NCBI GenBank assembly: GCA_000091205.1
Contig: AP006497.2
DNA from: Cyanidioschyzon merolae
Lineage: Eukaryota
Direction: 5' to 3' (one strand)
DNA length: 64,000 bases
This document shows, in pieces, positions 18,196 to 41,369 of this stretch (its first letter is position 1; the number at the start of each line of letters is the position of its first letter). Made by a program: the position numbers and the translations under genes. Under the pieces are notes generated by a model. That model was not told the origin of the DNA. It saw only the letters and a program-made list of their open reading frames with translations, and searched no databases.

Positions 18196-18399
18196 AACGC
18201 TTGACTAGACTTGTTTGAGGTTTGAACCACAAATGAATTAGAAAACTACACTTTGCTACGACCTGAACGGATATCCAATGTTTTACAGCTGAACAACACG
18301 TTACTGATGCCCACGACAGGGACCTTTACCACAATGAACGGAGGGGCGGAGGCAGTAGCAGCAGAAAATATTGACGATAATTCTGAGTAGTTATCCGCT

Positions 18400-22400: not shown

Positions 22401-22482
22401 AAATTGCGCTCGGTGGGCGCACCTCGGAGATCGGGAAGTCAACTGACACGACGCGCATGCCGCCGTAGAAGGGTAACGCGAT

Positions 22483-24880
22483 TGGGATCAGTAACGTGTT
22501 GTTCAGCTGTAAAACATTGGATATCCGTTCAGGTCGTAGCAAAGTGTAGTTTTCTAATTCATTTGTGGTTCAAACCTCAAACAAGTCTAGTCAAGCGTTT
22601 TGTCGCTGTATGTAACAGAAGCCTTCAAAGAGCGTTGTTTTTCAAAGAAACAAAAAAGCTATGAAACAGCAAGCCGACGATCCTGGAGGCTCAGTGTCGC
22701 CGACTACCAGAAAAAAACGAAAACTGTGCCGGGTCCAGAAGACAAGGAATCGAAGAAGGACCTAAAGGGAGAGGCCCTACGTCGAAGGCGGCAAGAAAGA
22801 CGGCTGTACGACGAGAAGGTGGCGACAACCATTCTTCTTGGACATATCAAGGATCCGTACAGGGAAAAGTTGCGAGACGCAATCGAAAACCGTGTCGACT
22901 CGTACTCCAAGAGTCTTGTCAAGGCTTCGTCAGGACTGATGCATTTGGCGAGAGAGATGTATCGCGACGTGACGCAGATCGAAACGGTCGAGATTCCGGA
23001 CGAGTCCATCGATAAGACGTTTATTCAACACCTGATGCTTCGTAAAGAGAAAGCGCGGAAGGAAAATGTGCTAGTGCATACCCTCCACGAAAAACATCCC
23101 TTTTACAGATTCAATGGTACTCGATACAAGGGTGACTCGAATATTTACGACTATGGGGCGATGAAGTAGCTCACGAACCTGAAGAACCATTTGACTATGA
23201 ACCTCGAACGTTTCATGATACGCGCCGTGTTTGCACGCTACCCGGGCCTATCTCGCAATGGAATATGGGCGATTATCGATGCCATCACGAAAGATCGCTA
23301 GCATGAAGATGAGATCGAATTCGTTGACAAGAAGGCGTCAAACGAGAGCACGAATGAGGATTCTGTAATCCGTACGGCTATACAAGAGCACTGTGCAGTC
23401 TTGGGGCTGGCGAATCCAGCAGAAAAGATATCAGCGTTGGAAAAAGATAAGGAAAGATATTATCGCCTCATCCTGCGATATTTCGTGTTTCTGGACCGAG
23501 AGCTCGAACGGAAAGCGGAGATGAAGCTGAGTGAGGAAAGAAATGAAGAGCGGGAGAGACGGAAGGCGTTCCCAATGGGGAAGCGCTTCAACGTGGCTCC
23601 AATGTGCAACATAAGGTCAGATTTTGTGTCCATCCACTCCAGAATCCTTCACGGCATTATGAAGGAGATCAGTCTGGAGTTCAATGTTCGCAGGGAGGAG
23701 TTCTCCGGTGAAAACCAGGAGGCGTACCGGAAGAATATCTTCAATTTCAAACTTCTCAAAGTCAGCAAACAAAAGGTATTCACTGGGTTGATCGAAATCG
23801 ATGGAGTAGCCATCTGTGTACACTATCGGCATTGAGGAAAGATCGGCCAGTTCCGCCCTCGGCTGCGCCCGTGACGAAGGATGAAGCAAAGAAGGAGGCG
23901 GGTCCTGCGACGCAGGAGGTGGAGCATAACGACCTTGTCGTTGACGCGGACCCCGGAAACACGAATATCATCACCATCGCTGCTCCCAAGCGTGCGGAAG
24001 ATGGTGCTGACGGCAACTTTCGTCAGAAAGACATGTGTCTGTTGAGGTTCTCGAGAGCGAGGTACTGCCGAGAATCCGGTATAGTAAATGCGAGGAAGAA
24101 AATCGTTACATGGAATTCAGGAATGAAGGATCACCTGGAAGCTATGAGCGAGGTGACGAGCCGAGGAGCGGACCTTGATGCTTTTCGGAAATTCATGGAA
24201 GTTCGTGTTGCCCATTGGGATGCGCTGTGGGAGGAGTATACCAAGCCCCGGTGGGCTCGTTTGCGAATGAATCTCTACGGTGGGATGCAGCGTGCGTTCG
24301 CGAACTTTCTCAATCAGTTGAGTGACTTGAAGGAGGATAAAAGTCAGAGGCTCATAGTAGCGTACGGAGCAGGCCGATGGAAGACCCAAAAAGGACGACG
24401 CCAGCTCCAACGACGAGAACGTAGAGGGAGCGCGCACGGCGTTTTGAAACAATACCTGTAGATGAGTTTCGAACATCGTATACACACCATGAACTGGGGT
24501 GTACACTCCAGAGGGTGGAGATGGAAAAGTGCCAGCGGAGCCCTGAGGATACGAAAAAGTACGGAGCGCTGCCGGAAGGGCAAATGGAAAGGAGAGCGAA
24601 AGTTCGAGGATTGCTTGCATCAGTAAGTACAACCAGTGATGGCACGAAACGTATGGAGTTTGTGAACCGAGACTTTAACGCCGCCATCAATATAAGGAGA
24701 TGTGCGGTGCTGGAGACGAGACCTCCAGCGTTGACAAGAGTGAACTTTGTTGGACAACCTCTCAAAGTCGAACTATATGAGAAAAAGTTGGAAGCAGTAG
24801 TTGGCGGCCGCTCCAAAAAGACGGGAAGGCGTCTACACAGCAGTTGGAGACGATTTGTCTAGGGCGCGTTCGCCGCCACC
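22483..24880. repeat. Right arm of the large inverted repeat (contains nuclease copy 2 on the plus strand)
   Basis: Reverse-complement match to 15690-18310, read directly. Confidence 0.9.
22600..24862 (+). CDS. TnpB/Fanzor-like RuvC-fold nuclease, copy 2. The reading frame is split into 4 ORF segments (22600-23169, 23401-23835, 23832-24461, 24515-24862; ~657 aa total), so it is either an intron-containing gene or a pseudogene
   Basis: A RuvC-I-like motif [16 protein letters not shown] has its Asp at 23949-23951. A RuvC-III-like motif [15 protein letters not shown] has its Asp at 24671-24673; D-x-N-A-A-x-N-I is the TnpB/Cas12/Fanzor signature. The RuvC-II region reads [12 protein letters not shown] (no Glu), as reported for Fanzor1-type proteins. 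No CxxC...CxxC zinc ribbon is seen. Segments 1-2 are joined in frame through two TAG codons (23167, ~23296). Segments 2-3 differ by a frameshift. Segments 3-4 could be joined by a 56-nt GT..AG intron (24458-24513). A basic NLS-like stretch RRRRQERR lies near the N-terminus. There is no in-frame ATG at the N-terminal end. Confidence 0.65.
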
Positions 24881-25163
24881 GCTGAAAACTGCGGGAAGCA
24901 ACGTCTTTCTTTTGAAAGAGGTTTGTTGTTGCTGGTGGCGGTTGTGCATCTTTATATCCTGGATCGTGTCAGCGATCTCACACGGTACAAAAGTTGAAGG
25001 GGTGCAACACACGTACAGCTTCTCTGTCTGGGCACGTGCAACGCTCGAATCCTGGCGGCGCTCTCGAGACTGATAGAGAAAGCCCGCTTGTGAGGTATGC
25101 TCGGCGCTTGTTTGATTCGCGCTCTTACCCTGCGCAGGAAGCCGTGAACAAAATACTGCTGGC

Positions 25164-27260
25164 ATGGAGGCAGAAGGGGTTGCTGTTGCGACTGCCGCAG
25201 AGCAGGCAGCACTAGTATTCTTCTGCGGTCCGCTGAACGGCAGCATCTTTGTAGCGGAGTGCGCAGAAGTAATAGATGCCGCTATCGTTGAGAGCTCCGA
25301 GGCGTGGCGCTGGACGGTGCGACCAGTGTGGCTGCGCTCTCCCACGAGCGACAACGCATTGAGCCCCGCACTGGCGAGAGCAACCACTGACGGACGCGAA
25401 AGAAAGCGACAGCGGACGAAACCTGCTGACGTATCCGCCAATGTGTCCGAACGAGAGCACCTCCGAGCAGCCAAGGTTGCCGCTGCCCGCTCTCTGCGTG
25501 GCAATGGGGTACGCTGTATCGCGGCTCAGCGCTGCGGGCGGGCGACAAGTCGGGGCGATGGCGAGACCTGCTGGATGCTTGCCGCTGCCGGAGATGATAA
25601 GATACTGCGCGTTTTTCGAGGGAAACACATACAACCCGCGCAAGCGACAGATGCAGCGATGCTCTGGGAGACTGTCGTCGAAAAGTAAGCTGGTTCGGTA
25701 CGAGTACCTCGCTAGCATGCCGAGATCTAAGGATGAAGCGTATAACTGCATTGGACTAGAGTTTCTGAGTCTAATTCTGTGCTGAAAGCGTTGCTTTCCC
25801 TTGGCTGTCTGAAGCTTTCCGGAACGCTGGCCGGGTGCCTCGCACGCTTGACGATACGAGCGTCGCGGATGGAGCCTTTGCTGGACAGATAAACTAACCG
25901 CGGTAATTTTGAGCACAGAGCGAACCCGAAACGGATGACAGCTGTACAGCTGGGTTTCGACGGCCGTGTGGCGCTCACAGCCGACAAATTCGGTGACGTC
26001 TACGCGCTCCAGATCGGGGAGGAAGCGTTGCTGCCAGAGCCGGCTTGGCAGTATTTGTTGCGTCAGCCGGTATATGTTGCGGGGGACGCTTCTGTAGAGC
26101 CAGTCATGGGGCATTTGTCAATCATTACATCGTTGGCAATCGATCCTGGAGGCCGTCTCATAGCTAGTGCTGACATCGAGGGCCAAATTCGCATTTCGGC
26201 ATTTCCGGAGGTGTACAGAGTAGAGCAAATCTACTCTAGTTGCGGCGGTGATCCATCATGGTGCACATCCAGCGACTTTATCACGAGACTCTCCTGGAAG
26301 CATGGTAGTCAAACGCCAACGCTCATAGGCGCTGGGACCGACGTCTGGTTCGTGGCAAAACAAGTGAAGCCGGTGCCCGCGGCACGCGACACTTGCGATG
26401 GTGAATCCTGTTGGCGTATCTGGGGTGGGCGTCTCGGCTCCTTGCGCGGAACTGGAGCGGCCTATGAGGGATCAACTTCAGACGAGAACGCATCAATGGT
26501 GGCCCGAGCGCCTTCTGAGGGTGCAGCTGGCCGCGCACTGGGTCGAGCATCGGGGCTGGAATCTTGCTCGACGCACGGTTTCACGTGGATTTGTCTGGAT
26601 ATCGATGCTCGCCTGACGCTAGCGCTCTGGGGCAACGCTCAGCATCAGACGTGCTTCAGTATTATTTCGTTGATGAACGCGGAATCCGAGAGCGCACTGC
26701 ATCGTTTGAATGAAAGACTGGGCGATGCTCGAGCTCGCTATCGAACGCGTATACCAACCGGATGCTGCTCACTGCCGCTCAGCACGTGCTTGCCCAAGGG
26801 CCGTGAACACCAGCTCCGGTCGTTATCGACGCCCGTAGAACTGTGCTCGATGATCTTCGTTCCGACAGCGCCTGGTCCACTTGATGCCGCGGTCTGCTCG
26901 ATGCATGAGACAGGCGCCCGGTGGACACCTGAGGTGACCCGAACCTCCACAGACGTCTCTGAACCCGAAGCTGTTCGTTTCTTCTTTGTTCTTCCCTTTG
27001 TGGAAAGCGATGACCCAGCAGCGGAGGATGCGCTGTTGCCTCTGGCGGCGACGATGCAGTGGACGCTCAACCAGTCCGTCGCAACTTGCATCCGAGAGTC
27101 CAGCGGGGCGTTCAGTACATCTGAGCGAGCAAACACACCTTACAATGCCTTACATCACTCGGGCTGGAGCTGGATATTCGATCAGGCATGCAACGCCGTG
27201 ACCGGAGGCGACGGAAGCCCAGCGCCCGTGCCGACCCCCACTACGGAAACCTCGAGGTAG
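25164..27260 (+). CDS. tRNA (guanine-N7)-methyltransferase non-catalytic WD-repeat subunit (TRM82/WDR4-like), probably 2 exons (25164-25688 and ~25935-27260) with a long low-complexity C-terminal extension
   Basis: Downstream ORF: LTADKFGDVYALQI...VMGHLSIITSLAIDPGGRLIASADIEGQIRISAFPEVYRVEQIYSSCGGDPSWCTSSDFITRLSW, which includes the WDR4/Trm82 KFGDVY motif. Upstream ORF 25164..25688 carries a WD-like CWMLAAAGDDKILRVFRGKH. The intron position was not resolved. Confidence 0.55.
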
Positions 27261-27735
27261 AGCAGGGACAATTGCCAAGGAAACCTCGAGGTACAGATTG
27301 TGCGTGAGAAAGCCTCACACGAGCGCTTCACGCGCGCAAACTGGTTTTTGGATGACGATTACCGCACGGAGAGTCGCGTCCGAGCCCAACGCGATGCATA
27401 CATCGCGATAAAGCGCACAGACTTTCACAGCATACGTCGGATACTCGCCTATCGCAGCACAGTTCGCGTCGATGACGAGACCGTTACATGGTGCAGTTTT
27501 TAGCGTGCAAATGCTCAGGATATGATATCCCGACGACTCCAAGCTCCGCAAAGCCAATATCGACGCAAATTCTACGCTGCAGCCGGACGCTTTGGTGCTG
27601 CGGCTCTGGGTTACAGGGCTCTAGCGCCTGGTGACGGCATGCGGCTGCACCTGGAGATGTCGGTGACGCCCGGATCCACATATATCCACTATTGCCTGAA
27701 CCAGTTCTCAAATCGACGGCGTATCCGCAGCGATT

Positions 27736-28461
27736 TCAGATATCCACGATAACGAAAACCTCGTAAACGCGCTCGGGGTCGTTGTCGGCAGCTGTCTCTG
27801 CCGGTGTTCGTTTACGAATCGTCATTGCGCTGTACGTGATCGCTTTTACCTCAGTGCCAGTGCCGTGTTTTTGTGGGTCAAAAGCCTCACCGAATGCAGT
27901 GACTTGCATCTGATAGGATTCTCGAGCTTCAGCGGTTAACTGGCCTTCCGAATCATTTAAATCGCTTTCTCGAAATAACTCTTTGTCGGAGACTGGTATT
28001 TGCCACGCCGTCACCAGCACTCGTGCAGCCACGAAGCCGTCCACGTGAAATCGATATAGACCCTCGGACAGAAAGTCGTACAGAAGACTCTTGAGATCGT
28101 GACCCCGAGCGCTCCACGTTTGCGGACTCGCATCCAAGCGCGCACGCACTTGTTCCACGTTGAGCATGACCCCGTAGAGTCCCAGCAGGCACTGGGCGAA
28201 CGCCCCAGGCAATGAGCTCGACCACGCATGGATCATGACGTCGGCAGTGTGGTCAAGATACGTAAACTGGCCACGCGAGTCTAGAATGCTCGCCTCGGCG
28301 ATCGCAACCGGGAACGCGTCGAGTGCCTCAGGCTGCTCCTCCGTTCGCTCCGGGACGTGGTGAGCACCAGAGTCCCGACACAAACGCTGACTTGAACCAG
28401 AGGCGTGGGCGCCTTCCTCGCCCTGCCCCATAGGATCATGCGTTTGGTCAAGTACCGCTTG
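27736..28461 (-). CDS. Archease (cofactor of the tRNA-splicing ligase RtcB)
   Basis: ORF 27736..28797(-). From the internal Met MGQGEEG... it reads FTYLDHTADVMIHAWSSSLPGAFAQCLLGLYGVM...HDLKSLLYDFLSEGLYRFHVDGFVAARVLV...GTEVKAITYSAMTIRK...YEVFVIVDI, which are archease hallmarks. The 5' part of the listed ORF overlaps the neighbouring gene and is probably not coding. Confidence 0.8.
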   Translation of the reverse strand, partial: QAVLDQTHDPMGQGEEGAHASGSSQRLCRDSGAHHVPERTEEQPEALDAFPVAIAEASILDSRGQFTYLDHTADVMIHAWSSSLPGAFAQCLLGLYGVMLNVEQVRARLDASPQTWSARGHDLKSLLYDFLSEGLYRFHVDGFVAARVLVTAWQIPVSDKELFRESDLNDSEGQLTAEARESYQMQVTAFGEAFDPQKHGTGTEVKAITYSAMTIRKRTPAETAADNDPERVYEVFVIVDI

Positions 28462-28856
28462 CCCTGGCTGGTGCAGACTCTCCAGTGAAGAGGCAGCCGT
28501 CGTCGCTGGCTCAGACGTGCGAACCGTAGCCCGCCGCTGGCAACGGGGCCCCGCGGGACGCCTCGGAAGTGAACGGAACCCCCATTCGATCATATGCGGG
28601 TCAAGAGACATACTGTGGCACTGTTTGCTTTCAGGCAAGCGTCCAGTGCTGGCGTCGAGTCGCACGTTCAATACCCGAACTGAGTTTTGTCCACAAGCGA
28701 CTTGTATCGCTGAGAAGCTATCTCCCAGCCGCGTACGGCGTTGCGCATGTGCTGGCGTCCTGCCGACGCACCGATGACTCCCAGGTCGTTGCCGCATTCA
28801 CTTGTGAACTTGGGTGCCTGTGGGGCCACCTAAACAGCATAAATCCAGAAAGCATG

Positions 28857-29654
28857 GCGTTTGGAGTGGTTCCGCAGACACCAAGGCAACAGCCGTCTTT
28901 TTTTCGTTCGCGAACGACGTGCTGTTTCGTGCAACGAACTGCGCAGAGCTCTCCCGCAGTCCTGCGAGCGGCTAGTGCGCTCTCCTGGAACGAAGGCGGA
29001 GCCCAGAGGCCGCTTTGGTTCGTTCCCCCGGCCACAGGAGGACAATCTAAACATTGTGCGAGTGGTAGTCTGTTGATCGCTGCCTCTGACGGGAAACCGG
29101 CGCACACGAACTTGAACCGTCAACGTTCGGGGCCTGCATATCGACCGTCGCGGGACACCAGGCGCGGTGGACACCACCGTGCAGGCGGACGCCCCCAAGC
29201 AAGGCGTTCCGAACAGCAGTGTTTCGTGCTCGTCGCCAACCCGTGCAGACGACCAACGCAGCGCCCGATTATTGAAGTTCGGGCAAGCAAGGCTGTCTTT
29301 GGGAAACGAGCAACGGTGCGGACCCGAGCGCGAAGACGCCTTCGCGCTGCTGCACGGCAAGTGCTGGTGATCTGGGGACGCAGCGACTTTTCCTACGTTA
29401 TTCACGGCTTACCGGAATGTCTCTTTGTGTCGTGGAAAGACCTGCTACAGGAAATGATGGAAGCTTTGCAACGGTCTGGTTGTGCGCATGAGAAAGCTCG
29501 TGCTCCGCCACGTCTACCGCAGCACCCACACGACGCCTCCTCTTCATCAAATGGGCAGGCGTCTGCCGCGGAATCCACCAAAGACGGTTCTCCAGCCGCG
29601 CAGTTGACTCAAACAGATGAAAAACCCACTACAGACGCGTTTCGACGACAGTAG
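28857..29654 (+). CDS. Protein containing a bacterial-type RNase P protein component (RnpA)-like domain
   Basis: ORF 28569..29654. The region PIIEVRASKAVFGKRATVRTRARRRLRAAARQVLVIWGRSDFSYVIHGLPECLFVSWKDLLQEMMEALQRSG parallels the RnpA pattern G.tVaKK.v.rAveRNR.KRrlREafR....DfVvvar....l..l..L. The start is placed at the internal Met MAFGVV... to avoid overlap with archease. Confidence 0.45.
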   Translation, partial: AFGVVPQTPRQQPSFFRSRTTCCFVQRTAQSSPAVLRAASALSWNEGGAQRPLWFVPPATGGQSKHCASGSLLIAASDGKPAHTNLNRQRSGPAYRPSRDTRRGGHHRAGGRPQARRSEQQCFVLVANPCRRPTQRPIIEVRASKAVFGKRATVRTRARRRLRAAARQVLVIWGRSDFSYVIHGLPECLFVSWKDLLQEMMEALQRSGCAHEKARAPPRLPQHPHDASSSSNGQASAAESTKDGSPAAQLTQTDEKPTTDAFRRQ

Positions 29655-30084
29655 CGCCAATGTCACTGCAGTGAAGCGGCGCTCGAACCATACCAGCATG
29701 ACGACTCAGACAAGAGCTGGAAGTACTGTATCGCATGAGCCGATGTTGGCGACCATTCTTCCATTCCATTGAGGAGTAGAATCGATGATGCGAGGAGGTC
29801 GCCATGCGCGCTAGTGGATGATAGCGAATAGAGCGAAACGGCATTCAGTGCTGTGGCCGACGACAGTGCCCCAGATGCATGCCCCTAGCCCAATGCCCCT
29901 ATTCTGATCACGATACCTGCAGCGATGCCTTGGTGTAGCGTTTTTCGGATGCAATACAGGCAGGCTGCATCGAATGGATGCGGAATATGGCGGGAAACGG
30001 GACACGTGTGCCTTGAATGAACCCCGCGATCATGAGGAACAAGCGGACTCGCCCGTGTGTGTATCAACCGCGTCTCCTTGCGGT

Positions 30085-30548
30085 GTTCACATTCCGCTGA
30101 TAAAGCGCTTTGCTGAGTACGAGACGTTCTCGTGATGAGAGCGCAGCCCCGGTGCTTGTCTCTCGCAGTGATCACGCCCATGGCAGAGCACTGGGAACCC
30201 CCGCATTGCACTCATAAAGCGCTTTGCTGAGTACGAGACGTTCTCGTGATGAGAGCGCAGCCCCGGTGCTTGTCTCTCGCAGTGATCACGCCCATGGCAG
30301 AGCACTGGGAACCCCCGCATTGCACTCATAAAGCGCTTTGCTGAGTACGAGACGTTCTCGTGATGAGAGCGCAGCCCCGGTGCTTGTCTCTCGCAGTGAT
30401 CACGCCCATGGCAGAGCACTGGGAACCCCCGCATTCCACTCATAACGCGCTTTGCTGAGTACGAGACGTTCTCGTGATGAGAGCGCAGCCCCGGTGCTTG
30501 TCTCTCGCAGTGATCACGCCCATGGCAGAGCACTAGGAACCGGAACGA
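30085..30548. repeat. Tandem repeat, 4 copies of a 114-115 bp unit
   Basis: The unit ...aaagcgctttgctgagtacgagacgttctcgtgatgagagcgcagccccggtgcttgtctctcgcagtgatcacgcccatggcagagcactgggaacccccgcattgcactcat recurs at 30102, 30216, 30330 and 30444. Read on the minus strand (ORF 30087..30770) it encodes 38-aa repeats. Confidence 0.95.
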
Positions 30549-31900
30549 GTGCGTGCACTGCGATTCAGCTTGAGAATGAGGAGATCCTCGATACCATGTG
30601 CTAAACGAATACCTGGTGGACAGCAAATATCCCGACCATATCGCCGCTCTTCGAGTTGCATACGCGCCACACTGATTGCTAAAAACGGAGGCGGTATCAC
30701 GTCGCGCTCCACGAACACATCGATGGCTCGTACGATCCAGTTCACGAACCCGAGTTGAAGGTCGGTGCATTCCTCCAGATCGGTCGGACGAACTGGCAGC
30801 CGCATTCGAAAGCCACGGGGGTGCAGTACACCCGATACATCAACGGCATAAAAACCCGCATGAATAGGCAGCATGTTCACCGGATCGATTTGGAGCTGTC
30901 GTAGAACAGCCCGATAACAGTGGTCGATCGGTTGTGCTGATCCGTTTTGCACAGCGCTTAATGCCGCTTCATCAGTGTAAACAATGAGGTTATAGAGTGG
31001 TCCGCAAAACGTCAGTGAGTTACGTCGATTCCGAGCGCAGCGGTGGTAAACATGCAGGTCCGCATAGAGCGGCTCCAACGGCACACTAAGATAGATGTCA
31101 GGCTGTTGATAGCGTTGAATCACCGCAGGGATCATGGTTTTCGAGTGTCTGTTTCGGGACCTTGCCGAGCTGGCACGGTTCGGTCGCAGCATCCCCGTCA
31201 GGCTAGTGAGTGCGGGGTGTAGAGGCGCCAACCACTGAGGCCCCGGTGACTGCTCCACTGCTGCAGACGCTTTCTGCACAGTCGCTGCCTGAGCTGCCTG
31301 CCGGTGCTGTTGGTTGCGTAGGCCCCAGCGCGACTCTTGGAGTGATCTAGCAACGCGACTGGCAACCTGAGGCTGCACGCGAGCCGAGGCTAGCGCCGCT
31401 CGTTGCACAGCGATCCAGCCCTGCATGTGCCTCTCGGAACAACCGGCGTTTGTTGAGCTATACCAACAGCTGGACGTGAAACTCAAACTTCGAAACTGAA
31501 GTATAAACGCTCTGAAAGAAAACAACGCCAACGCTGCAGCGGCAGGTGCGCTGTCGTCTCTCGGAACACTGAAACCGATGATTGTATGCCGCTGAATGCC
31601 ATGGTTGTGGGCAAAGCAGCGAATTCTGGAGAACCTGTACCAGAACACCCTATTTATCTTGGTTTCCCCAAAGGCATGGAACAAAGGGAAAGTATCGAGT
31701 AGAGTGGAGACAAGTCCCGCAACGTCTGTGTGCTGTGCCTGCTGGCATGACCTGTACCAGAACACGCTATTTATCTTGGTTTCCCCAAAGGCATGGAACA
31801 AAGGGAAAGTATCGAGTAGAGTGGAGACAAGTCCCGCAACGACTGTGTGCTGTGCCTGCTGGCATGAAGGAGAACGGCATGACGTGTCGGTGTCAGTCAC
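30533..31900 (-). CDS. Hypothetical 455-aa ORF whose N-terminus is built from the 117-bp repeats; C-terminal ~200 aa are globular-looking but the family was not recognised
   Basis: A long ORF in GC-rich DNA. The C-terminal segment ...PIDHCYRAVLRQLQIDPVNMLPIHAGFYAVDVSGVLHPRGFRMRLPVRPTDLEECTDLQLGFVNWIVRAIDVFVERD... has mixed composition, suggesting a real domain. Confidence 0.35.
   Translation of the reverse strand: MTDTDTSCRSPSCQQAQHTVVAGLVSTLLDTFPLFHAFGETKINSVFWYRSCQQAQHTDVAGLVSTLLDTFPLFHAFGETKINRVFWYRFSRIRCFAHNHGIQRHTIIGFSVPRDDSAPAAAALALFSFRAFILQFRSLSFTSSCWYSSTNAGCSERHMQGWIAVQRAALASARVQPQVASRVARSLQESRWGLRNQQHRQAAQAATVQKASAAVEQSPGPQWLAPLHPALTSLTGMLRPNRASSARSRNRHSKTMIPAVIQRYQQPDIYLSVPLEPLYADLHVYHRCARNRRNSLTFCGPLYNLIVYTDEAALSAVQNGSAQPIDHCYRAVLRQLQIDPVNMLPIHAGFYAVDVSGVLHPRGFRMRLPVRPTDLEECTDLQLGFVNWIVRAIDVFVERDVIPPPFLAISVARMQLEERRYGRDICCPPGIRLAHGIEDLLILKLNRSARTRSGS
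31634..31867. repeat. Tandem repeat, 2 copies of a 117-bp unit
   Basis: cctgtaccagaaca...ctgctggcatga recurs at 31634 and 31751. It is ORF-preserving in both the + (31596..32006) and - (30533..31900) frames. Confidence 0.9.
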
Positions 31901-32233
31901 TTTTTCGGTCAGCAGGCGGATGAACTACCCGCGCCGTTGTTCCTATGCTGATAGCCTTGCACCGAAAACAGAACTTGGGAAACTCTATTCACACCACTGT
32001 ATCTAGTGGTCCTCTGGTTCCACTCCGCACGCCCAATCCGAAATACCATTGAATACGTCGTAGAATGAGAAGTTTCCATGCCTTGGATACGAATGGTGAT
32101 ATATGGACGCGCATCGACCGAGATAAGAAGCACTTTTTGCGATAGACCTTTCGAGCGTTGAACAACTCATAATCGATTTTTTAGTGGCATATGAACGCTG
32201 ATTACCGGAGCAATCAGAGATTCGTCTCTTTCG

Positions 32234-32700
32234 ATGAGACGTTATGAGGTAGCAATGCTAGACCTGCATATGCATCATCCTGGAGAGCGCAACCCTTTTG
32301 CTCCCAGAGATGGGCCTGAGCGGCGACTCAGTCGTACGCTCGCCCACAAATCGCTAAATGAACAGAGACCTTCAACATCTTCTCCTTCGTCGAAGCACTC
32401 TTCGTGCCTTCTCCTTCCAATATTTTTGCGTCCTGCTCTTGGACAACGTCCCTAAACATGCTTGGACAGCTGGCGAGGCGGACACGGCTGAGAATTGCTT
32501 TGAGCTGCGCTTCGTGCTTGCTGATTCTCCTTCGTTTAATGCAGTCGATGGCGTCTTCACTGTTGCCCAGTGACAGTTTTTCAGTAACGGACCAATAGGG
32601 GAATCGTTCGCGTCCAAAACATCGATGGATGCAGGGCGCTATTAGGAATCGTGTAGCTTCTGACTTGAGGCAGACTGGCCGAGATTTCCTCGTATGAAGC
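32234..32700. repeat. Copy of a dispersed repeat family shared with 48460-48700
   Basis: The DNA segment cttctccttcgtcgaagcactcttcgtgccttctccttccaatatttttgcgtcctgctcttggacaa resembles cttatacttcgtcgaagcagtcttcgcggatcctccttcccatattcttgcgtcgtgctctcagacaa at 48500. Translations also correspond: SSKHSSCLLLPIFLRPALGQRP vs SSKQSSRILLPIFLRRALRQGR, and PSPSNIFASCSWTTSLNMLGQLARR vs PPSHILASCSQTRALSITYLGQGHRR. Confidence 0.6.
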
Positions 32701-35247
32701 ATCCAGTTAAGCCACTGATCGTACGAGTTCGGGACCTAGGGATGCCAATTCTCCACAATTCTCTGGTTTGCTTCCAGCAAACCTTCAATACGGCAACACA
32801 GCTAATGCTCGGGACTGAAGAGGCTGCACAGATTGTACATAGGATCCGGGATGTACACATCCGCGTCCCAGAATACCATGACACGTTGCCGCAGCACGTC
32901 GGCGATGCGAGCATCCAAAGCGCGGGTACCGAACCTTGTCTGACGAACATCGAAAAAGAACATCTCCATATGCAGATCATTGTCGTGAAGTTCATGCAGC
33001 GCAGCAGCTGAGCGTTGTGCCCACAAATTCGTGGTCCGGTAAAATGCGAAGTGATGCACATGATTCTTGGGATGTTGATAGAGGCAAGTGATCGGCTGGT
33101 GCCACAAGACATCGAGGTGATTGCGAGCTCAGACGAGATGCCGCAACGAGATCCAGAGACGCTTCAGGTCGTTCATGCTTATGATGGTGCTCTGTTTCTC
33201 GGACTGTTGGATGTCGCATGCAGATATCGTTGGAAATGTGATGTGTTCGTGCATTCCTTGCTACCTGCACTCCCGTGTTTTCCTGAAGCGAACGCTCCAG
33301 AGCAAGGAATGCTCCATGTCACTGCAACCCGGGCGCTCTCGCCTCCTCAAAGCTTGAGGACGATATGGTCCCCATGAGTCACATCTACGCCAAAGATATT
33401 ACCATGGACAATTGGATAGCGTACTTTACGGCCTGTTCAGGGAGCGACGGCTTGTCTCTGGCAGCAAACGTAGAGGAGTATTCCGACAACATCGCCTGGA
33501 GCGTTGGCGGAGCCTTTGCAAGGTGTCTCGTTTACAGGGAAGAAACGGAAAGAAGCCGATCAGACAATCGAGATCAACGGAATATCCATTTGTATGCAAT
33601 TCTTGGAACCTTTGCCTGAAGCGAGCGGCTACAATCGATTGCAACCTTTCGTGTAGATGAAGCTCAGGACTTTGTGGTACACGTGGATGCCGGGTCGAAA
33701 GCCGTCATCGTCATCGCCACGCGTCTCGATCAGGAGCGCGGATCCAAACGCCTGATCGGGAGCATGGACGACGCTGCAAAACTATTCGAAGGCTCTTTAC
33801 GATAGCGAGAAGGCCACGCTGGAGGCCAGGATGCGTACCAGCAGGTCGAAGGACGGGATCAGGACCCGTTCGACGCGCTGAGCACCGCATCGAGCCGATG
33901 AGGATGCTATTTACGCAGTACTCAGAGCGTCCGTGAGCATCCAGATGCTTTATGAAGACGAGTTTTGACAGGCGTGTATGTCAGATCGCGCTGGAGTCGC
34001 CAATTGTTCTGATTGGATGGAGACAAGAACATGCTTTAGCCAATTGCATGAATGAGTTGGAAAAGTGACTCGCCGACAAATCGCGTCTATCACTGGTAAC
34101 CTATGGTGCTAGACGTGCCGTAGCGCGCAAAGGCTGCCCGTTTCCCATGATGAACCGAGCGTACAACGAGTGCAGGTATTGATCCTGAGCGATTCCCATC
34201 GATGCGCTCGAGGCGGCATATGCGCACCACGACCATGAACGCATGTGGAATCTGGTAGAAGGAACCAGTGTGAAGCAGATTCGGATGCACTATCTGGTGT
34301 CCGGGAAGCGGACCGGACGCCAGATACCGAAGTGATCGAAGATGAGAGGCTTGCTGTGCTGCGATTCCACGAGCAACAACGCACTTTCTGAACCCAGACC
34401 TGAATGCCTCCATCACCAATACGAAACGTGTCGTGCTTGCAGGGCGTCCGCCGGCCTTGTATCGATCGATGCTTCGAGGTGATCGCTTCGTACTCAATGT
34501 TAGCGTTGTGCTAAAAAGGCTGAAGGCTTCTGATGGGTAAAAATCAATAGCCAGGAGGCCGAGCATTGGAATCTCGAAAGGAGTACGGCATTGGCAGGGC
34601 ACGGTTCAGCAATTCAAAAACGCCAAAAGCGTGGTATATATGCGACAGGAACACTTTCAGCCTGGGCAATCAATGACCAATTGATGAGCTTCATGAATTG
34701 ATGTTGCTGAGTACACGAAACTCGCCATCGACGAAGGTTGATGGCGTTACGTCTCGATCGCAGTGATGAAGGCGTAGCAAACAATGGGGAACAACGAGTA
34801 TTCCCATGCATTTACGGGAAGTAGTCTCCGAGCACGCGGTAGCAGCTTGGGGCGGAAAGATGCCCCGCTTGGTGACCAGCCAGTCACTCGGTCTGTCAGC
34901 CAGACAGCCGGTGCCATGAGGTATCTTGCCGACAGGTGTCTAGCCCGCCATCCATGCTCGTATCCCTTTCAACTACAACGTTCTAGAATTCGCCAGTACC
35001 GTCCACGCTTTGTCACGAACGGCTGTCGCGGACGCCGCCTATGGTGTGTCCAGTTCCTGCCTAACGTTTTCGAATCAATCGGATGCTCGCTAATTTCGTG
35101 CGGCGAAAGAGTCACGCCCCTTGTCGTTGCAGCACAGGCACGCCATCCCCAGCCGCTGATGACCGAATGCAGGGTCAAACGAGCCTTCGCGTGCCTGCAT
35201 ACAGCGCCTGGAAGAGCGGGACGCCGGCACGCGGATGTGCTGACGCA

Positions 35248-37374
35248 TCATCGCAACTGCGGCTGGGGAGAGTCGGTGGCATTCGATGACTCGGTGTGCG
35301 TCGATGACGGCAGACTCTGGCTGGTACGTCGCGAAACGAGCCATGCTGAACGGGGCCATGGCCAACGGCGATACGTCGTTGCACCGGTGCTTGCTTCATG
35401 AGCTTGCGTTGCTGGCGCTACCGGCGCATTCATCATGGTGCCGCTCGGCGGGAGCGCTTCACCAATACCCCGCTCGACGTCTCCAGGTTGTGCAACTGGA
35501 TCCGGTAAACGAGGTTCATTTGGTAGAGCATGGTTCCGCAACAACGGCGAAAAGTCTTCGCGACATACCGGGCACGCCGGATGCTTGCGCAACCACGGGT
35601 CAATGCAGTCTGTATGAAAAAGGTGGTGGCAACCGACCCGACGCACGCGATCCCCATCTGCAAAATCCTCCAGACACACTGGACACGTGATGCTGCTGTA
35701 GGCGATCGACCTCTCTGGGTCGAACATGGCGGATTCGGGGGGTAGTCGCGGCACAGCCGCTAGATCCGTCGTTGATTTCGCCAACTCTCGCGCTTGAACA
35801 AGCAGCGACGGTGAAGTCAACGATTCCGCGGAATTCGGCATCATCATATACGGTGTCGTGTTATCATTGATCGCATCAGGGGTGCGCTCGCCCCCTAGAG
35901 GTACCCCTGGAGTTGCTGCAGCGTTTTCCCCAGCGGCAGCGTCGTCACTCGTATCCGAGCGCTTGCAGGATTGATGCTCTCCGCTGCAATACAAAGACGC
36001 TGGGAATACAGCTTCAATTTTTTCAGGTGGTATCGGAGGAAGACGGTTGCGGGCACCGCGCTGCCCTCGCAACGGCACGATTCGAATGCCGCTGTTCGCG
36101 AGCCTCTGAGCTTCGGCCTCGCTGACGTAAGGACCCATCGCATAAAGAACGCCTGGATCCGTCGGGTATTCCCGCCGCGGGAACAACCAGGCGAGAAGCA
36201 GCCCTATACCCAAGACGCCGGCGATGCCTCCGAAAAGTATCGGGAGTAGGAAAAACCAGCTGTTGTAGAAAGGCGGCCCGGTGCACGCCGGCGACGCCGG
36301 TGGACACGAACCACTGCTACCGCCACAAATTTTCACTTGCAGGGTCACGTTTGCCTTGGAGAACGGATCCATATTCGTTGGACAATACCGGTTTGCAACC
36401 GAAACCCAGTACGTGCTTGCATTTGGTGACAGCAACACGTTTTGCGTCGAATAGCCGCAGATGAAACTGTTCGTATCCGATTCGTTCGCTGGGAAGTTAT
36501 CATTCGGAGAGAATGTTGCGAACACAGGCATCGACCGGTAAGATCCATTGTCCGGGGTAACCAAAAGCTCTGGGCAGCCGTTTTGCCCTTGAATCGCTAA
36601 CGTAACAGCATAGTTGGTAGCTCCCGAGCTCGTATTCAATGTTTGTGCGGAGAAGCGATAATACGACAAGGTGCTGAAATTCACCAAAGTCGTCGTGGAT
36701 TCTCCAACAGTAATATTGGGTGCCTCCACTGAGCAGTACGGTCCGACAAGGCTGCCGCTGCAGTCACATACCCCCCTGGTACTACAGGTCCCATTTCCCC
36801 AGCACGGACTTTCGGAGAACGGTCCTAAGGCGCAGGTTTGCTTCAGCGAGTCCGCGAAGCGCAAACGAATCGGCCCCTGTATCGTGATTGATTGCGGCTC
36901 GCTCGTTAGTACAGAAGAATAGTTCCCCTGGACTGCTACATTCAACGTCCTATTCCCAAACTGCGTCTTATTCAAGACAACATAAACGTATGGGAGTCCA
37001 GCGAGATAGCCCCAGTTGTCCGTAGCCAGCGTCAGATTTCGTGCAACATCCTGAACAGTGAGCTCGACGCGCCCAGCCAAGCGAAAAGCATCAACCGTCA
37101 CGTTTTCTCGTGACATTTCAATTATAAGATACGAGCTATCCATGGAAGATGTATTGACGCGAAACGACAGCGCGGGGCTCGCTACCGGCAAACTAGCGAA
37201 ACAAGCCGAGCTATCCTGTGTCAAAACGGTGTCGTTCGAGCACGTTTCATTTATCGCGCTCCATGGTACTGGAGTCGGCACAGAAGCGTTGACATGCCCA
37301 GTGAAGCGTAGCAGTAACAGGGATAAAACCCCAAGCAAGAAACCGAGCTGCGCTCGGTGCTCATGGCTCGCCAT
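35248..37374 (-). CDS. Type-I transmembrane RING-H2 E3 ubiquitin ligase with large extracellular domain containing an EGF-like Cys module
   Basis: ORF 35248..37509(-). The likely start is MASHEHRAQLGFLLGVLSLLLLRF (a signal peptide). The ectodomain has many N-glycosylation sequons and CWGNGTCSTRGVCDCSGSLVGPYCS. The TM segment is FFLLPILFGGIAGVLGIGLLLAWLF. The cytoplasmic RING-H2 is CPVCLEDFADGDRVRRVGCHHLFHTDCIDPWLRKHPACPVCR. Confidence 0.8.
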   Translation of the reverse strand: MASHEHRAQLGFLLGVLSLLLLRFTGHVNASVPTPVPWSAINETCSNDTVLTQDSSACFASLPVASPALSFRVNTSSMDSSYLIIEMSRENVTVDAFRLAGRVELTVQDVARNLTLATDNWGYLAGLPYVYVVLNKTQFGNRTLNVAVQGNYSSVLTSEPQSITIQGPIRLRFADSLKQTCALGPFSESPCWGNGTCSTRGVCDCSGSLVGPYCSVEAPNITVGESTTTLVNFSTLSYYRFSAQTLNTSSGATNYAVTLAIQGQNGCPELLVTPDNGSYRSMPVFATFSPNDNFPANESDTNSFICGYSTQNVLLSPNASTYWVSVANRYCPTNMDPFSKANVTLQVKICGGSSGSCPPASPACTGPPFYNSWFFLLPILFGGIAGVLGIGLLLAWLFPRREYPTDPGVLYAMGPYVSEAEAQRLANSGIRIVPLRGQRGARNRLPPIPPEKIEAVFPASLYCSGEHQSCKRSDTSDDAAAGENAAATPGVPLGGERTPDAINDNTTPYMMMPNSAESLTSPSLLVQARELAKSTTDLAAVPRLPPESAMFDPERSIAYSSITCPVCLEDFADGDRVRRVGCHHLFHTDCIDPWLRKHPACPVCREDFSPLLRNHALPNEPRLPDPVAQPGDVERGIGEALPPSGTMMNAPVAPATQAHEASTGATTYRRWPWPRSAWLVSRRTSQSLPSSTHTESSNATDSPQPQLR

Positions 37375-39197
37375 GGGCGCTGCTATCTGCCGTGGAGCGC
37401 GCGCCTCGTGCTCACGTTGGCGTTCACGTACCGCCCCAGGCGTGAAACTTGTGCCACTGGTCAAAGCTTTGAAAGTGGAAACTATCACTGCTAGGTTGTA
37501 CGCACACACCGCAACTCAAGAAGCAGGTATCCGAGCGTTCGTTCAGAGTCCGGATTCCGGGTGCGGAAATCGACGTTGGCGTTGTGAACACGATCGCGCT
37601 GCATGCGGCAACGCAAAGGGCGCATCCTCACAGAGGAGCCAGAATACGCTGAAACGTGCAGTTTTTTGGCCATTCTATATGCTTTTGAGAGAGCCACAAC
37701 ATAGCGCACAACTCCTCGCACGCTACCCCTGTACCAGGTGAAAAGAAGGACACGAAGCTGGTTGCTCTGGTTCTTTTTATTCGATTTCTTGTACAATATT
37801 AGCTGTAAATGGACAGTCTCTACATTTGGCGTACAGCGAAAGAGCGCTTTACGTACATGGACGTGATTTAAGGACTTTCGGTCATCGTTTTGAGGTGTGT
37901 ACTTGGACGCTTTGACGAAGGCATATGCTACGTAACGTTAATGAAGATGGGTCGTGACACACTCGAATGAGAGCTCGTAAAATAACCGATAGCAGTATTC
38001 CATGCGAATGCACGAGCCTCAACTCTCGTTCCTTCGCTATGCGACGCATGCTCCATATGATGCATGCGTCAGGTTTTCGATATCTCTGTTTCAAGACACA
38101 TTGTGGGGGCAGCGATTCACACACTCGGATTGACGAGGATAAACAGTCGACGTCGTACTTTGACGACATCTTCACAGCAGAGGCATCCGCGAAGGGGCTG
38201 AATTCTCATCGCTTTTAGCGACGCTATGTTATCGCGTATCTGCCAGTATCCCGCCCGATTCATCCACTGTACACCTTTCAAAAAGTATTGAATCGGATGC
38301 CGGGCTTCAAGTAGGCACACCCGCCGCAGCAGAACGAAGACGCCACGACTCCTGTAGACGATACCACGGAACTCAAGGCTATTTGGGTAGCTAGATCTAT
38401 GAAGTCTCTGGTGCTTCGTTGAGAGTCGGTGGAAATCTCTAAACATCCTTGGAGGAGCTGAGATCTCCTCTCTGGATACCTGTAGCGATTGTGTACGCAC
38501 CGTATTTTGGTTCGATTCACGTATCTCGCAGCGTAGAAAAGTTCCGCTCCGACCGGTAAAGTCGCGTTTCCTCAGCTTCGAATGTCATGAGTCCAGCCAG
38601 CCGGTACTTGCACACATATCTACCCATACATGTCCATGCACATGTACATAGAATGCGGAGCTGTCGTCGAACGCATGGGCGAGGCACGATCCCACTTCTT
38701 AGCCGCCACGAGCCCCGTGAGAATACACCAAACGACCCATAATCATCATTTGCAACGGAAATATCCATCCGCTCCAGTTACCGTGCCCTAGCGATGAAGG
38801 ATGGTACGCACCACTTGGAAGCAAGCGCAGCGAAGAGCTGAATCACTGAGCGAGACCCGCTTATGTCGCTGGGATTCCCTCGAAGCCTGTTAGGACAAAG
38901 CGCTTGGAAACCTGCCCTATTGTTTCCACATTACCCTCGAGTAAAAATCGATCTCAAATGCACTTGAATACAATACCAAAAGCGTCTAGTGACGACGCAG
39001 ATCCCTCAAAGCTCTATGGTATAGAGCGCGGCTCGCTTCACCGATCATCGAGGTGGCGCTTGTTCGGAACTCGGAAGACGTCCGCACTTGAGCGGTTTGT
39101 CGACCTGCACGCTGCTCGGGACGTGAGGCATACGTTGACCTTTAAATCTTCGAATAGCCACAGTTTTCGGTCTTCTTAACTGATTCAGCATTCGATC

Positions 39198-41369
39198 TTG
39201 AACGCGTCTTCGACGAAGCTGGACACCGGTCTGGCCCGTGCGCCTACAGAGGCGCAGCAGCCGCCAGAGGACCCTGGCCTGACTACTGTCGTAGAAAAGT
39301 TCCGAGCGACGTTCGATGCTAACTTGGACTGGCAACCGCTGCAGTATGGCTTGGTAGATGCTGTAACGCCGGGCGCACAGCGGAAAGGTTCTGTTTCTCA
39401 GGTCCTTCGCGCAGAACGCAAAGCTCAGCGACAGAGAGCGAACAGACTCGCCTCTATCGCCGTGGACGCGGCAGCCGTCCAAGCACTCTACGAACAAGGC
39501 AGCTGGGTACTTGCGCCTGAACTCGCTGGAAACGCTGCTCTTGGGACGTCCCCAGAGCAGAACTGGCTTCGTTGCTGGCCGCTGCTGGGGAACAAACGTT
39601 GCGGACGCTGGTACGTGCCGCCGCCGAACACTTTCGCTCAGCTGGGCGAACTTTCATTCGAACCAGTGGTGCACTTCAAGTCCGTTGATGGGCATCATGG
39701 CAAACAGCGCTTTTCAATGCGGTTCATGAACTTGCCAGCCTTGTTACAATGCATTCGCTGCGGAGGCCTGGCGATTGTGGATGCGACCCGCTCCGGGAAA
39801 CTCTGGCCGGATGCGTTACGCTGCACCTTGCCATTGTGGTGTGCAGTAATGAACGCTTTGTGGTGGTGGCCCGTTTTCCACAGCTCGGTCGACGATGTCC
39901 CGGATCCTGCACAGCTCTCGTGTGTTGCAGCATTCTGGCTACGCCTTTGTTGCAACTGGGGCATCGACAAGGACGAAATGACACAGTTGGGGCAAGCGGC
40001 CGCCGCTGCACTGGGCGCATTGATATCCTGCAAACCTTTTATGGACTGGTTTGAAGAAATGATCCGCCAGCGCAGTGACTGGGGTGTACTTTGGCCAATG
40101 GTCGCATTTCGAGGCGACCAAAAACTCGCTGAAAGGTTTCAGGGAACGTCCGCATGTCGCGTTTGTTCGGGACAGTCGTCGAGCGATACCGGGGACTGGC
40201 TCTCGCTCAGCTGCTCAGTACGCGAGGCCTTGGCGGTGCTGCAGCAGGTCGGAATGCGTCTGCAGTACACCGGGGGCAAGCAGTCGTCTCTGCATGTGAT
40301 ACCTGTGGTTGGGATTTCCGCATCTGATGCTCGCCAGGAGGGCAACCCGATCCTCAGTTGTCGTTACCGCTATGTCGCTGGTGCCGGAGACGACGAGGAG
40401 TCCTGGAGCGAGGGCCTCGAGCCGACGCTCTGGTGGCAATACCAGTCGCGTATTCGGGATGTGCTCGCACAGGGTGAAGCACTTTCGTCCGTCCTGCCTG
40501 ATCAGTCGGCTGAAAACAGGCACATTTGTGGGATAGATCACGGAAGCTGCAGAGTAGAGATCCTTGCAAGCATTTGGAAGCAGGAGCGTGTACATGTTTT
40601 TCTGGGACGTTGCGCCTGTTCCAGGGCTAACCCAACATCTGGAGACCACTGTGGACTCCAGTCGGAGAATTCCTTGCACGCTCGCCGGGTTTTCTGGCTG
40701 GATGCGCTCCCTTGCAAGCGCTCTTCGCGTGCAGCAGCAATGCTAGAGTCCAGTTTACGGAGTGCAAGCGTCGCAATACAGCAGACGCGCTCAAACGAAG
40801 ACCTAAGCCCGACGCGTAGCCCGTCTACGCAACCTTTGCATTGCACGCCGCACGAACTCGAGAGAGAGCAATCGACAAAAGCTTGGAAGCAGCCGGAAGC
40901 CGCGGGAGCGCGCTCCGCGCCTCGCGCCTATGCACACCATGGGGATAACTCCGCCCAACAGTGTGCTCGCTCGGCATCGTATGCTCCATGCAAACATTTG
41001 CTGAATTCAGGACAGCCTGCAGCGAGTAACGGTCAGCAGCGATGCGAGGATTGCCTAGCGGTAAGCAACGGCAAGCTGTCTCGTGCAGAGGCGAGCGCTG
41101 CCGCCCTTCTCGATACGCTGTTGCCCCAGATACGCCAGTGTATACAGGAAGAGGATCGATCGGTGGTGCTAGCCTCCACAGCGGGGGACGGCCTGGCGCT
41201 CGCAGCCGCCCTTGTCTGGCTGGCCACCAGTGGTCTGCAGCAGCCAGAGACGGGGCTGTGTCGTCTTCAAGAGACTCTCCTGCTCCTACAGTGTCGATAT
41301 CCTTCAGCGGAAGTGTCTCAAGCGGTCATGAAGCTGGTTCGCGCACACCTGCGACGTTATGCGAGGTAG
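39198..41369 (+). CDS. Initiator tRNA A64 2'-O-ribosylphosphate transferase (RIT1-like) with C-terminal extension
   Basis: ORF of 723 aa. Rit1-family motifs are present: LLGNKRCGRWYVPP (cf. ANERCGSWY) and IVDATRSGKLWPDALRCTLPLWCAVMN (cf. DSTRRGKxMPDALSKTIPIWCAVLN). Confidence 0.7.
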   Translation: MNASSTKLDTGLARAPTEAQQPPEDPGLTTVVEKFRATFDANLDWQPLQYGLVDAVTPGAQRKGSVSQVLRAERKAQRQRANRLASIAVDAAAVQALYEQGSWVLAPELAGNAALGTSPEQNWLRCWPLLGNKRCGRWYVPPPNTFAQLGELSFEPVVHFKSVDGHHGKQRFSMRFMNLPALLQCIRCGGLAIVDATRSGKLWPDALRCTLPLWCAVMNALWWWPVFHSSVDDVPDPAQLSCVAAFWLRLCCNWGIDKDEMTQLGQAAAAALGALISCKPFMDWFEEMIRQRSDWGVLWPMVAFRGDQKLAERFQGTSACRVCSGQSSSDTGDWLSLSCSVREALAVLQQVGMRLQYTGGKQSSLHVIPVVGISASDARQEGNPILSCRYRYVAGAGDDEESWSEGLEPTLWWQYQSRIRDVLAQGEALSSVLPDQSAENRHICGIDHGSCRVEILASIWKQERVHVFLGRCACSRANPTSGDHCGLQSENSLHARRVFWLDALPCKRSSRAAAMLESSLRSASVAIQQTRSNEDLSPTRSPSTQPLHCTPHELEREQSTKAWKQPEAAGARSAPRAYAHHGDNSAQQCARSASYAPCKHLLNSGQPAASNGQQRCEDCLAVSNGKLSRAEASAAALLDTLLPQIRQCIQEEDRSVVLASTAGDGLALAAALVWLATSGLQQPETGLCRLQETLLLLQCRYPSAEVSQAVMKLVRAHLRRYAR

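Follow-up and report, generated by a model that had tools for sequence, protein, structure and literature searches.

Proximity of four tRNA-acting genes in Cyanidioschyzon merolae is probably fortuitous and includes a nuclear gene for a bacterial-type RNase P protein

The question raised by this locus is why four genes that act on tRNA lie close together in the nuclear genome of the red alga Cyanidioschyzon merolae. We analysed a stretch of 64,000 nucleotides from contig AP006497.2 (assembly GCA_000091205.1), referred to below as the window, in which homologues of TRM82/WDR4, archease, the bacterial RNase P protein (RnpA) and Rit1 fall within 16.2 kb, the first three being direct neighbours. 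An earlier note on this DNA had named these four genes, described three of them as directly adjacent, and suggested that the grouping may be coincidence or could indicate co-regulation or a transferred block. The four identities were upheld by Pfam, profile and fold evidence, and the adjacency is confirmed by coordinates 25164–29654. Our data favour chance juxtaposition, carried by inherited synteny, with a probability of about 0.72. The juxtaposition would have arisen in the ancestor of the Cyanidiales and would then have been carried within a larger, slowly rearranging syntenic block; on this view the group does not work like an operon and was not transferred as a block. The four are real but independent genes that serve different steps and probably different compartments. 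The main value of the locus lies in the RnpA-like gene, which adds a previously unrecognised red-algal protein to the bacterial-type RnpAs encoded in nuclei.

The window has long open reading frames (ORFs) on both strands and nearly lacks introns, as in an intron-poor nuclear genome of a Cyanidiales red alga. Three contigs from hot-spring metagenomes (L001–L003) are 99.3–99.7% identical to it, and its closest named relative is Cyanidiococcus yangmingshanensis: over approximately 10.8–43.8 kb, the window follows the gene order of that alga's contig JANCYV010000004.1. The window includes no organellar DNA. A tRNA scan of the whole window returned no tRNA gene, no Rfam family reached its gathering threshold anywhere in it, and the window holds neither a gene for RtcB, the partner ligase of archease, nor a gene for Trm8, the partner of Trm82.

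Gene order in related genomes

To follow the four genes across relatives, six-frame scans of all fetched loci were made with a profile for each protein, and annotated contexts were added; for Galdieria, the comparison covers the RnpA-like locus only. Cyanidiococcus (L004) and a metagenomic relative (L005) contain all four genes in the order and orientation seen in the window, within the series EF-hand, TRM82, archease, RnpA, bL25, RING, Rit1, acylphosphatase and TAF9. In Cyanidium caldarium (L009), the shared series includes glutaminyl cyclase, SRP54 and EF-hand, continues through TRM82, archease, RnpA, bL25 and RING, and then passes to DUF488 and HEAT protein genes, with Rit1 absent within 10 kb. 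On a contig of 69% GC whose archease is 37% identical (L007), TRM82 and archease are found in convergent orientation, and DUF4079 and PEMT genes occupy the position of the RnpA-like gene. Elsewhere the genes were found singly: the RnpA-like gene in Galdieria partita (GJQ13765.1, L010), where its neighbours are Spc25, AMPK-CBM, ASF1 and CPP1-like genes, and in a plastid-bearing alga (L011, L012); archease in Gracilaria domingensis (L008); and Rit1, beside TIC20, in another alga (L013).

For three Cyanidiales relatives the locus extends as far as the RING gene, which is syntenic in each of them and, like it, the other unrelated flanking genes (glutaminyl cyclase, SRP54, EF-hand, bL25, acylphosphatase and TAF9) are conserved equally with the tRNA genes in Cyanidiales. 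Because the unrelated genes are equally conserved, the conservation within Cyanidiales is ordinary synteny. The evidence favours the coincidence that the earlier note had allowed for. Synteny decays with phylogenetic distance, with no preferential retention of the tRNA genes, and among the Cyanidiales relatives, Galdieria, Gracilaria and the other algae we saw no adjacency that exceeded background synteny or had re-formed independently. Dispersal in related genomes, which the note had taken as the mark of a chance arrangement, is largely what we found: the RnpA-like gene, archease and Rit1 each stand alone in other algae. It does not extend to Cyanidiococcus and L005, which keep the arrangement.

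Chance, selection or transfer

Three observations weigh against chance juxtaposition. We simulated random gene order with 4,800 genes, of which 60–120 were assumed to act on tRNA. The genome-wide chance of a run of three such genes was 0.009–0.07, and that of four among six consecutive genes was 0.001–0.017, with the reservation that the class ‘acts on tRNA’ was settled on only once the genes were known, and that many other classes are of comparable size. In addition, the adjacency of TRM82 and archease persists in L007 despite different other neighbours, and archease and the RnpA-like gene are divergent, with start codons approximately 420 bp apart, so that a shared promoter is possible. On these grounds the genes could be read as a selected functional cluster, in which co-regulation, for example from a bidirectional promoter between archease and the RnpA-like gene, coordinates tRNA maturation in the cytosol and the plastid. 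This reading draws on the nominal improbability of the arrangement under random gene order, on the presence of the TRM82–archease pair in five of five Cyanidiales-like lineages sampled, L007 included, and on the short divergent spacer between archease and the RnpA-like gene in four lineages. We consider it quite unlikely. The adjacency is lost outside the Cyanidiales; the unrelated bL25 and RING genes lie inside the group and are conserved equally; TRM82 and archease, which are convergent with stop codons 475 bp apart, cannot share a promoter; and the products differ in substrate and probably in compartment. Short divergent spacers are, moreover, normal for a compact genome, and the functional category was defined post hoc. 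We infer that there has been no selection for clustering.

The transferred block that the earlier note had raised, whether from a prokaryote or from another eukaryote, is barely credible, even though the RnpA-like gene and its bL25-like neighbour are both of bacterial type. It is contradicted by the composition of the window, which is even throughout (GC 0.49–0.59) and shows no discontinuity, by the grouping of archease with eukaryotic sequences, and by the spliceosomal intron with a conserved snoRNA in the TRM82 gene. To our knowledge, the TRM82/WDR4 and Rit1 families are found only in eukaryotes. The RnpA-like gene itself is widespread: it occurs in Cyanidium as well, and it lies at unlinked positions in Galdieria and in many of the long algal homologues described below. 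We therefore rejected this explanation. With regard to phylogenetic affinity, which the note had proposed to examine gene by gene, archease has eukaryotic affinities, and the RnpA-like gene is the only one of the four with bacterial ancestry. Because it spans the Cyanidiophyceae and beyond at unlinked positions, its distribution points to an ancient single-gene endosymbiotic transfer. Chance juxtaposition thus remains our preferred account, and the clustering itself is of little consequence, other than to show that conserved synteny in compact genomes can mimic functional clusters.

TRM82, archease and Rit1 homologues

We found that the ORFs at 25164–25688 and 25935–27260 form one gene split by a 234-nt intron. 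Its donor (at 25685), branch site and acceptor are all kept in Cyanidiococcus and L005, and the spliced product is collinear with an annotated Cyanidiococcus protein of 605 aa. Pfam gave only a weak WD40 match. A profile built from three spliced orthologues and searched against the PDB matched yeast Trm82 (2vdu_B) at E 8e-9 over a single 146-residue stretch and human WDR4 at E ~1e-4; the next natural WD40 protein followed only at 3e-3, which places Trm82 and WDR4 above all other natural WD40 proteins. The similarity is therefore specific to Trm82/WDR4, beyond generic WD40 repeats. The product would be the non-catalytic partner of the m7G46 methyltransferase and would act on nuclear-encoded tRNAs.

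The sole intron of this gene contains a box C/D small nucleolar RNA (snoRNA) on the plus strand. It consists of a box C (GGATGAA), a guide GGACTAGAGTTT followed by CTGA (box D′) and a second guide CCCTTGGCTGT followed by CTGA (box D), and its conservation exceeds that of the flanking exons. In Cyanidiococcus and L005 both guides are exact and boxes C, D′ and D are kept. Cyanidium and L007 have a CCGA variant of box D′; in L007, whose TRM82 gene also holds the snoRNA-bearing intron, the second guide is degenerate.

The identity of archease is unambiguous: the PF01951 match covers profile positions 1–136 of 136 and falls in the C-terminal 176 aa of the protein. The reading frame stays open as far as 28797, and its likely start gives a protein of 231 aa, the same length as in a metagenome gene call. 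We collected 293 homologues, and every named one is eukaryotic (green algae, animals and other red algae), which gives archease a eukaryotic affinity. The protein would serve as cofactor of the RtcB ligase in tRNA splicing.

The Rit1-like gene was recognised by its N-terminal domain, PF17184, which two orthologues match at E 2e-45 and 8e-46 (P0006 and P0007). The DUSP-like second domain of Rit1, PF04179, was undetected at E <= 1 in the window protein and its orthologues (three sequences); the C-terminal ~300 aa are conserved across the three orthologues and match no assigned domain. Upstream of the conserved N-terminal domain, back to the preceding stop codon, the frame contains no ATG, and the first available ATG would cut approximately 180 conserved residues. 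Metagenome copies that are 99% identical also have no ATG, and Cyanidiococcus Rit1 has a normal one. It is possible that the gene starts at a non-AUG codon or that a short 5′ intron has escaped recognition; when we looked upstream for an exon supplying the ATG, only weak donor sites emerged. The protein would modify the cytosolic initiator tRNA (A64).

A bacterial-type RNase P protein

Four orthologous sequences of the RnpA-like protein pass the cut-off of Pfam family PF00825 (22.3 bits), the window protein with 28.7 bits and the orthologues with 23.0, 24.3 and 22.8 bits, and PF00825 is the sole family that these proteins match above its threshold. Because the N-terminal MAF is common to the three orthologues with intact N-termini, ATG 28854 is the most likely start. 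The protein has an N-terminal extension of approximately 90–115 residues, with no acidic residue among the first 46, and a variable C-terminal tail. Between them lies the helix pattern R-x-R-x-[KR]-R-x-x-R, which in the window reads VRTRARRRLRAAAR; it retains R65, which is invariant in the family, as well as R67, R70 and R71, which are nearly so. An AlphaFold (AF2) model of the core, made from an alignment that contained bacterial RnpA sequences, has a mean predicted local distance difference test (pLDDT) score of 90.1, and shows the order beta-beta-beta-alpha-beta-alpha with a 22-residue arginine-rich helix; the reference RnpA fold is alpha1-beta1-beta2-beta3-alpha2-beta4-alpha3. In a Foldseek comparison with the PDB, each of the top 16 matches is a bacterial RNase P protein (from Bacillus subtilis, Staphylococcus aureus, Thermotoga maritima and Escherichia coli), holoenzymes included, with a target-normalised TM score of 0.52–0.71 and a root-mean-square deviation of 2.0–4.1 Å over approximately 97 residues. 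The metagenomic copies carry the automated JGI label ‘RNase P protein component’.

Several results weigh against this assignment. The window protein scored 16.7 bits against the equivalog cut-off of 38.35 bits for NCBIfam TIGR00188 (rnpA), and two tested orthologues did not match that family at all. In the RNR motif, the Asn that is nearly invariant elsewhere, and that most other matches retain, is replaced by Thr in the window and Cyanidiococcus proteins, by Ala in L005 and by Ser in Cyanidium. The N-terminal alpha-1 helix is missing from the model, and its region is degenerate. A sequence-only PDB search with a three-sequence RnpA profile did not reach the solved RnpA structures, which were reached by the fold comparison. 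By homology, fold and RNA-binding arginines taken together, the protein is a bacterial-type RNase P protein.

We next searched 1.84 billion representative proteins with a profile of 110 positions built from three Cyanidiales core sequences only; word-indexed homologue searches gave four proteins each for the RnpA-like protein and Rit1. At E <= 1e-3 the profile retrieved 156 proteins, nearly all with an RNR motif (RNRxKR or RNRxRR), the hallmark of bacterial RnpA. The best matches were the Cyanidium protein (KAK4536263.1) and a 107-aa Logan fragment, and Galdieria partita was added later. Approximately 35 matches are long (220–400 aa) and share an N-terminal SLPTxRERRYL, a variable insertion, the core PPWAYIVRVRAxKxxLGKRAVxRNRAKRRxRAAAAQ and often CWED; many of these open with AF.AP-type N-termini. 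The remaining matches are of 100–150 aa and have the classical bacterial RnpA start, LKKRxDFL. A bacterial source of the gene, cyanobacterial or other, did not emerge from the best short matches, which gave almost no organism names.

The long family comprises P0131–P0170 (loci L011 and L012) from Logan and JGI assemblies, and one of its members shares a contig with Tic22, indicating a plastid-bearing eukaryote. A partial match of 124 aa (P0177) carries the annotation of a hypothetical protein from the fungus Umbelopsis isabellina, a hint that bacterial-type RnpA may also be encoded in the nucleus of a member of the Mucoromycota.

A candidate protein subunit of plastid RNase P

Phe-containing N-termini of the AF.AP type are typical of plastid transit peptides in red algae and glaucophytes. 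From the Phe in the N-terminal MAF we infer import into the plastid. In the proposed mechanism, the nuclear-encoded RnpA-like protein would be imported into the plastid, its arginine-rich helix would bind the plastid-encoded RNase P RNA (rnpB), and it would act as the cofactor that enables removal of 5′ leaders from plastid pre-tRNAs. We put this sequence of import, RNA binding and cofactor function at slightly better than even odds. That the protein and its Cyanidium, Galdieria and long algal relatives (SLPTxRER ... RNRAKRR ... CWED) are the protein subunit of red-algal plastid RNase P is, in our estimate, evenly balanced.

Published work provides the setting for such a subunit. rnpB is present in all sequenced red-algal plastid genomes, those of C. 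merolae and Cyanidium included, and red-algal plastid RNase P RNA shows no activity by itself in vitro; outside prasinophytes, no algal rnpA was known (PMC4264200). A 2020 paper lists nuclear RnpA for prasinophytes and Andalucia only (PMC7050145), and the protein-only enzyme PRORP is apparently lacking in Rhodophyceae (2024 review, PMC10941002). The papers we searched contain no report of a red-algal nuclear rnpA, although the main survey of eukaryotic RNase P, by Lechner et al. 2015 (Molecular Biology and Evolution, MBE), may hold an earlier mention.

The protein may alternatively not be a subunit of plastid RNase P and may instead work in mitochondria, or bind RNA in some other, diverged role. 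Targeting to the plastid and not to the mitochondrion is deduced from the sequence, the presequence could be of either type, and the neighbouring bL25-like gene matches mitoribosomal bL25m chains among others. A diverged function would also fit the loss of the RNR-motif Asn, the alpha-1 helix that is not evident, the score below the TIGR00188 cut-off and the three-sequence profile that missed the solved structures. We regard such a role as doubtful, although a serious contender, given that the MAF and AF.AP-type N-termini are plastid-like, that rnpB is carried by all red-algal plastids, and that the fold and the arginine helix that contacts the RNase P RNA are retained. As regards a mitochondrial role, we know of no rnpB in red-algal mitochondrial genomes.

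The RnpA-like gene is thus a candidate for the protein partner of plastid RNase P RNA. If so, the need for the protein would account for the lack of in vitro activity of plastid RNase P RNAs on their own, and red-algal plastid rnpB would be a functional ribonucleoprotein component and not a relic. The presence of a nuclear RnpA with a presequence in Cyanidiales, in Galdieria and in other algae makes the question of plastid RNase P experimentally tractable and, because C. merolae is genetically tractable, reconstitution with the plastid RNA and localisation are feasible.

Neighbouring genes, repeats and insertion

The features of the locus are listed in Table 1. The interval between the RnpA-like and Rit1-like genes holds a bL25-like gene, a stretch of approximately 3.3 kb and a RING gene.

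Table 1 Features of the tRNA-acting gene group and its surroundings, in window coordinates
Feature	Position	Strand	Evidence and remarks
TRM82/WDR4-like gene, exon 1	25164..25684	+	ORF with ATG start; conserved donor; profile match to Trm82/WDR4
TRM82-like intron, host of snoRNA	25685..25918	+	GTAAGC ... ACTAACC ... CACAG; snoRNA at ~25721-25820
TRM82/WDR4-like gene, exon 2	25919..27260	+	In-frame join of VVEK to ANPKR; spliced protein 620 aa
Archease	27736..28431	-	PF01951, E 3.8e-32
Divergent intergenic region, archease / RnpA-like	28432..28853		From the two start-codon coordinates; shared promoter possible
RnpA-like gene, 266 aa	28854..29654	+	MAF... presequence, RnpA domain at ~29199-29474, variable tail
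114-bp tandem repeat, ~3.9 copies	30090..30541		Immediately 3′ of the bL25-like gene
bL25/CTC-like ribosomal protein gene, bacterial-type, organellar	30533..31426	-	Profile of orthologues against PDB
RING-H2 membrane protein, not tRNA-related	35248..37509	-	zf-RING_2, E 8.5e-15 (Pfam)
Rit1-like gene (initiator-tRNA 2′-O-ribosylphosphate transferase)	39198..41369	+	PF17184, E 4.5e-41

The bL25-like gene is convergent with the RnpA-like gene and its product has an N-terminal extension. A four-orthologue profile found bL25 chains as its best PDB match (E 1.8e-6), and the Pfam L25p and TL5_C matches of the orthologues are weak. Because the bL25-like and RnpA-like genes are neighbours, two organelle-directed genes of bacterial ancestry adjoin here. 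The bL25-like gene is flanked by near-perfect tandem repeats, the 114-bp repeat on one side and two copies of a 117-bp repeat (31633–31867) on the other, and the copy number of the 114-bp repeat differs in metagenome contig L001. ORFs of 455 and 227 aa at 30087–31900 cross the two repeats, and the portions that do so were rejected as artefacts. The stretch of ~3.3 kb at 31900–35250 has no recognisable gene or Rfam match, and an Rfam scan by E value of 29600–35300 gave no match. The distance from the bL25-like gene to the RING gene is below 1 kb in Cyanidiococcus. A 71-bp piece of that stretch recurs at 48506–48576 with 82% identity, as found via the 99%-identical contig L001.

Immediately upstream of TRM82 lies a palindromic insertion (15681–24889) with arms at 15681–18311 and 22484–24889 that are 97–99% complementary. 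Its centre of 4.2 kb contains a reverse-transcriptase ORF (20605–21378; RVT_1), and a 75-bp tandem repeat lies within the insertion at 16624–16923. The insertion is absent at the syntenic position in Cyanidiococcus and Cyanidium and is probably a retroelement with inverted terminal repeats.

Comparison with known systems

Functional gene clusters and bidirectional gene pairs of eukaryotes, such as the GAL and DAL clusters of yeast, offer a parallel, as the window likewise groups genes of one broad functional class and contains one divergent pair. In contrast to such clusters, the genes in the window share neither a pathway nor a substrate, other genes of unrelated function lie between them, and the arrangement decays with phylogenetic distance as ordinary synteny does.

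The snoRNA also has counterparts. Box C/D snoRNAs are reported in 11 C. merolae introns (bioRxiv 10.1101/2025.12.01.691491, 2025 preprint), and the one described here likewise belongs to the box C/D class and lies in an intron of a genome that has kept few. Its two guides agree in sequence with the guides of the plant family snoZ157/R69/R10 and the Tetrahymena (ciliate) family TtnuCD15, to which it has sub-threshold Rfam matches (25.6 bits and E 0.004 for snoZ157/R69/R10). It differs from snoZ157/R69/R10 in falling below the Rfam gathering threshold, and its host here is a TRM82/WDR4 homologue.

The RnpA-like protein has the same predicted core and long-helix arginines as bacterial RnpA (B. 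subtilis 1a6f, T. maritima 1nz0 and 3q1q, S. aureus 6d1r and E. coli 2ljp). Unlike those proteins, of approximately 115 aa, it has 266 aa, and it is only 10–18% identical to them; it adds a presequence and a C-terminal tail, its RNR Asn is replaced, and its gene has no rpmH–rnpA linkage. The RnpA of Ostreococcus tauri and related prasinophytes (Lai et al. 2011, as cited in PMC4264200 and PMC7050145) is a nucleus-encoded PF00825-type protein in algae whose plastid keeps rnpB, and has, like the window protein, an N-terminal extension relative to bacterial proteins. The window gene differs in being red-algal; the Cyanidiales have RTR, RAR or RSR for RNR and a degenerate N-terminal segment, and the relatives in other algae hold a long insertion between the SLPTxRER segment and the core. 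The RnpA of the jakobid Andalucia godoyi is also highly diverged and nuclear-encoded, and partners an organelle-encoded bacterial-type RNase P RNA (PMC7050145); that RNA is mitochondrial, whereas here the sole known organellar rnpB is that of the plastid.

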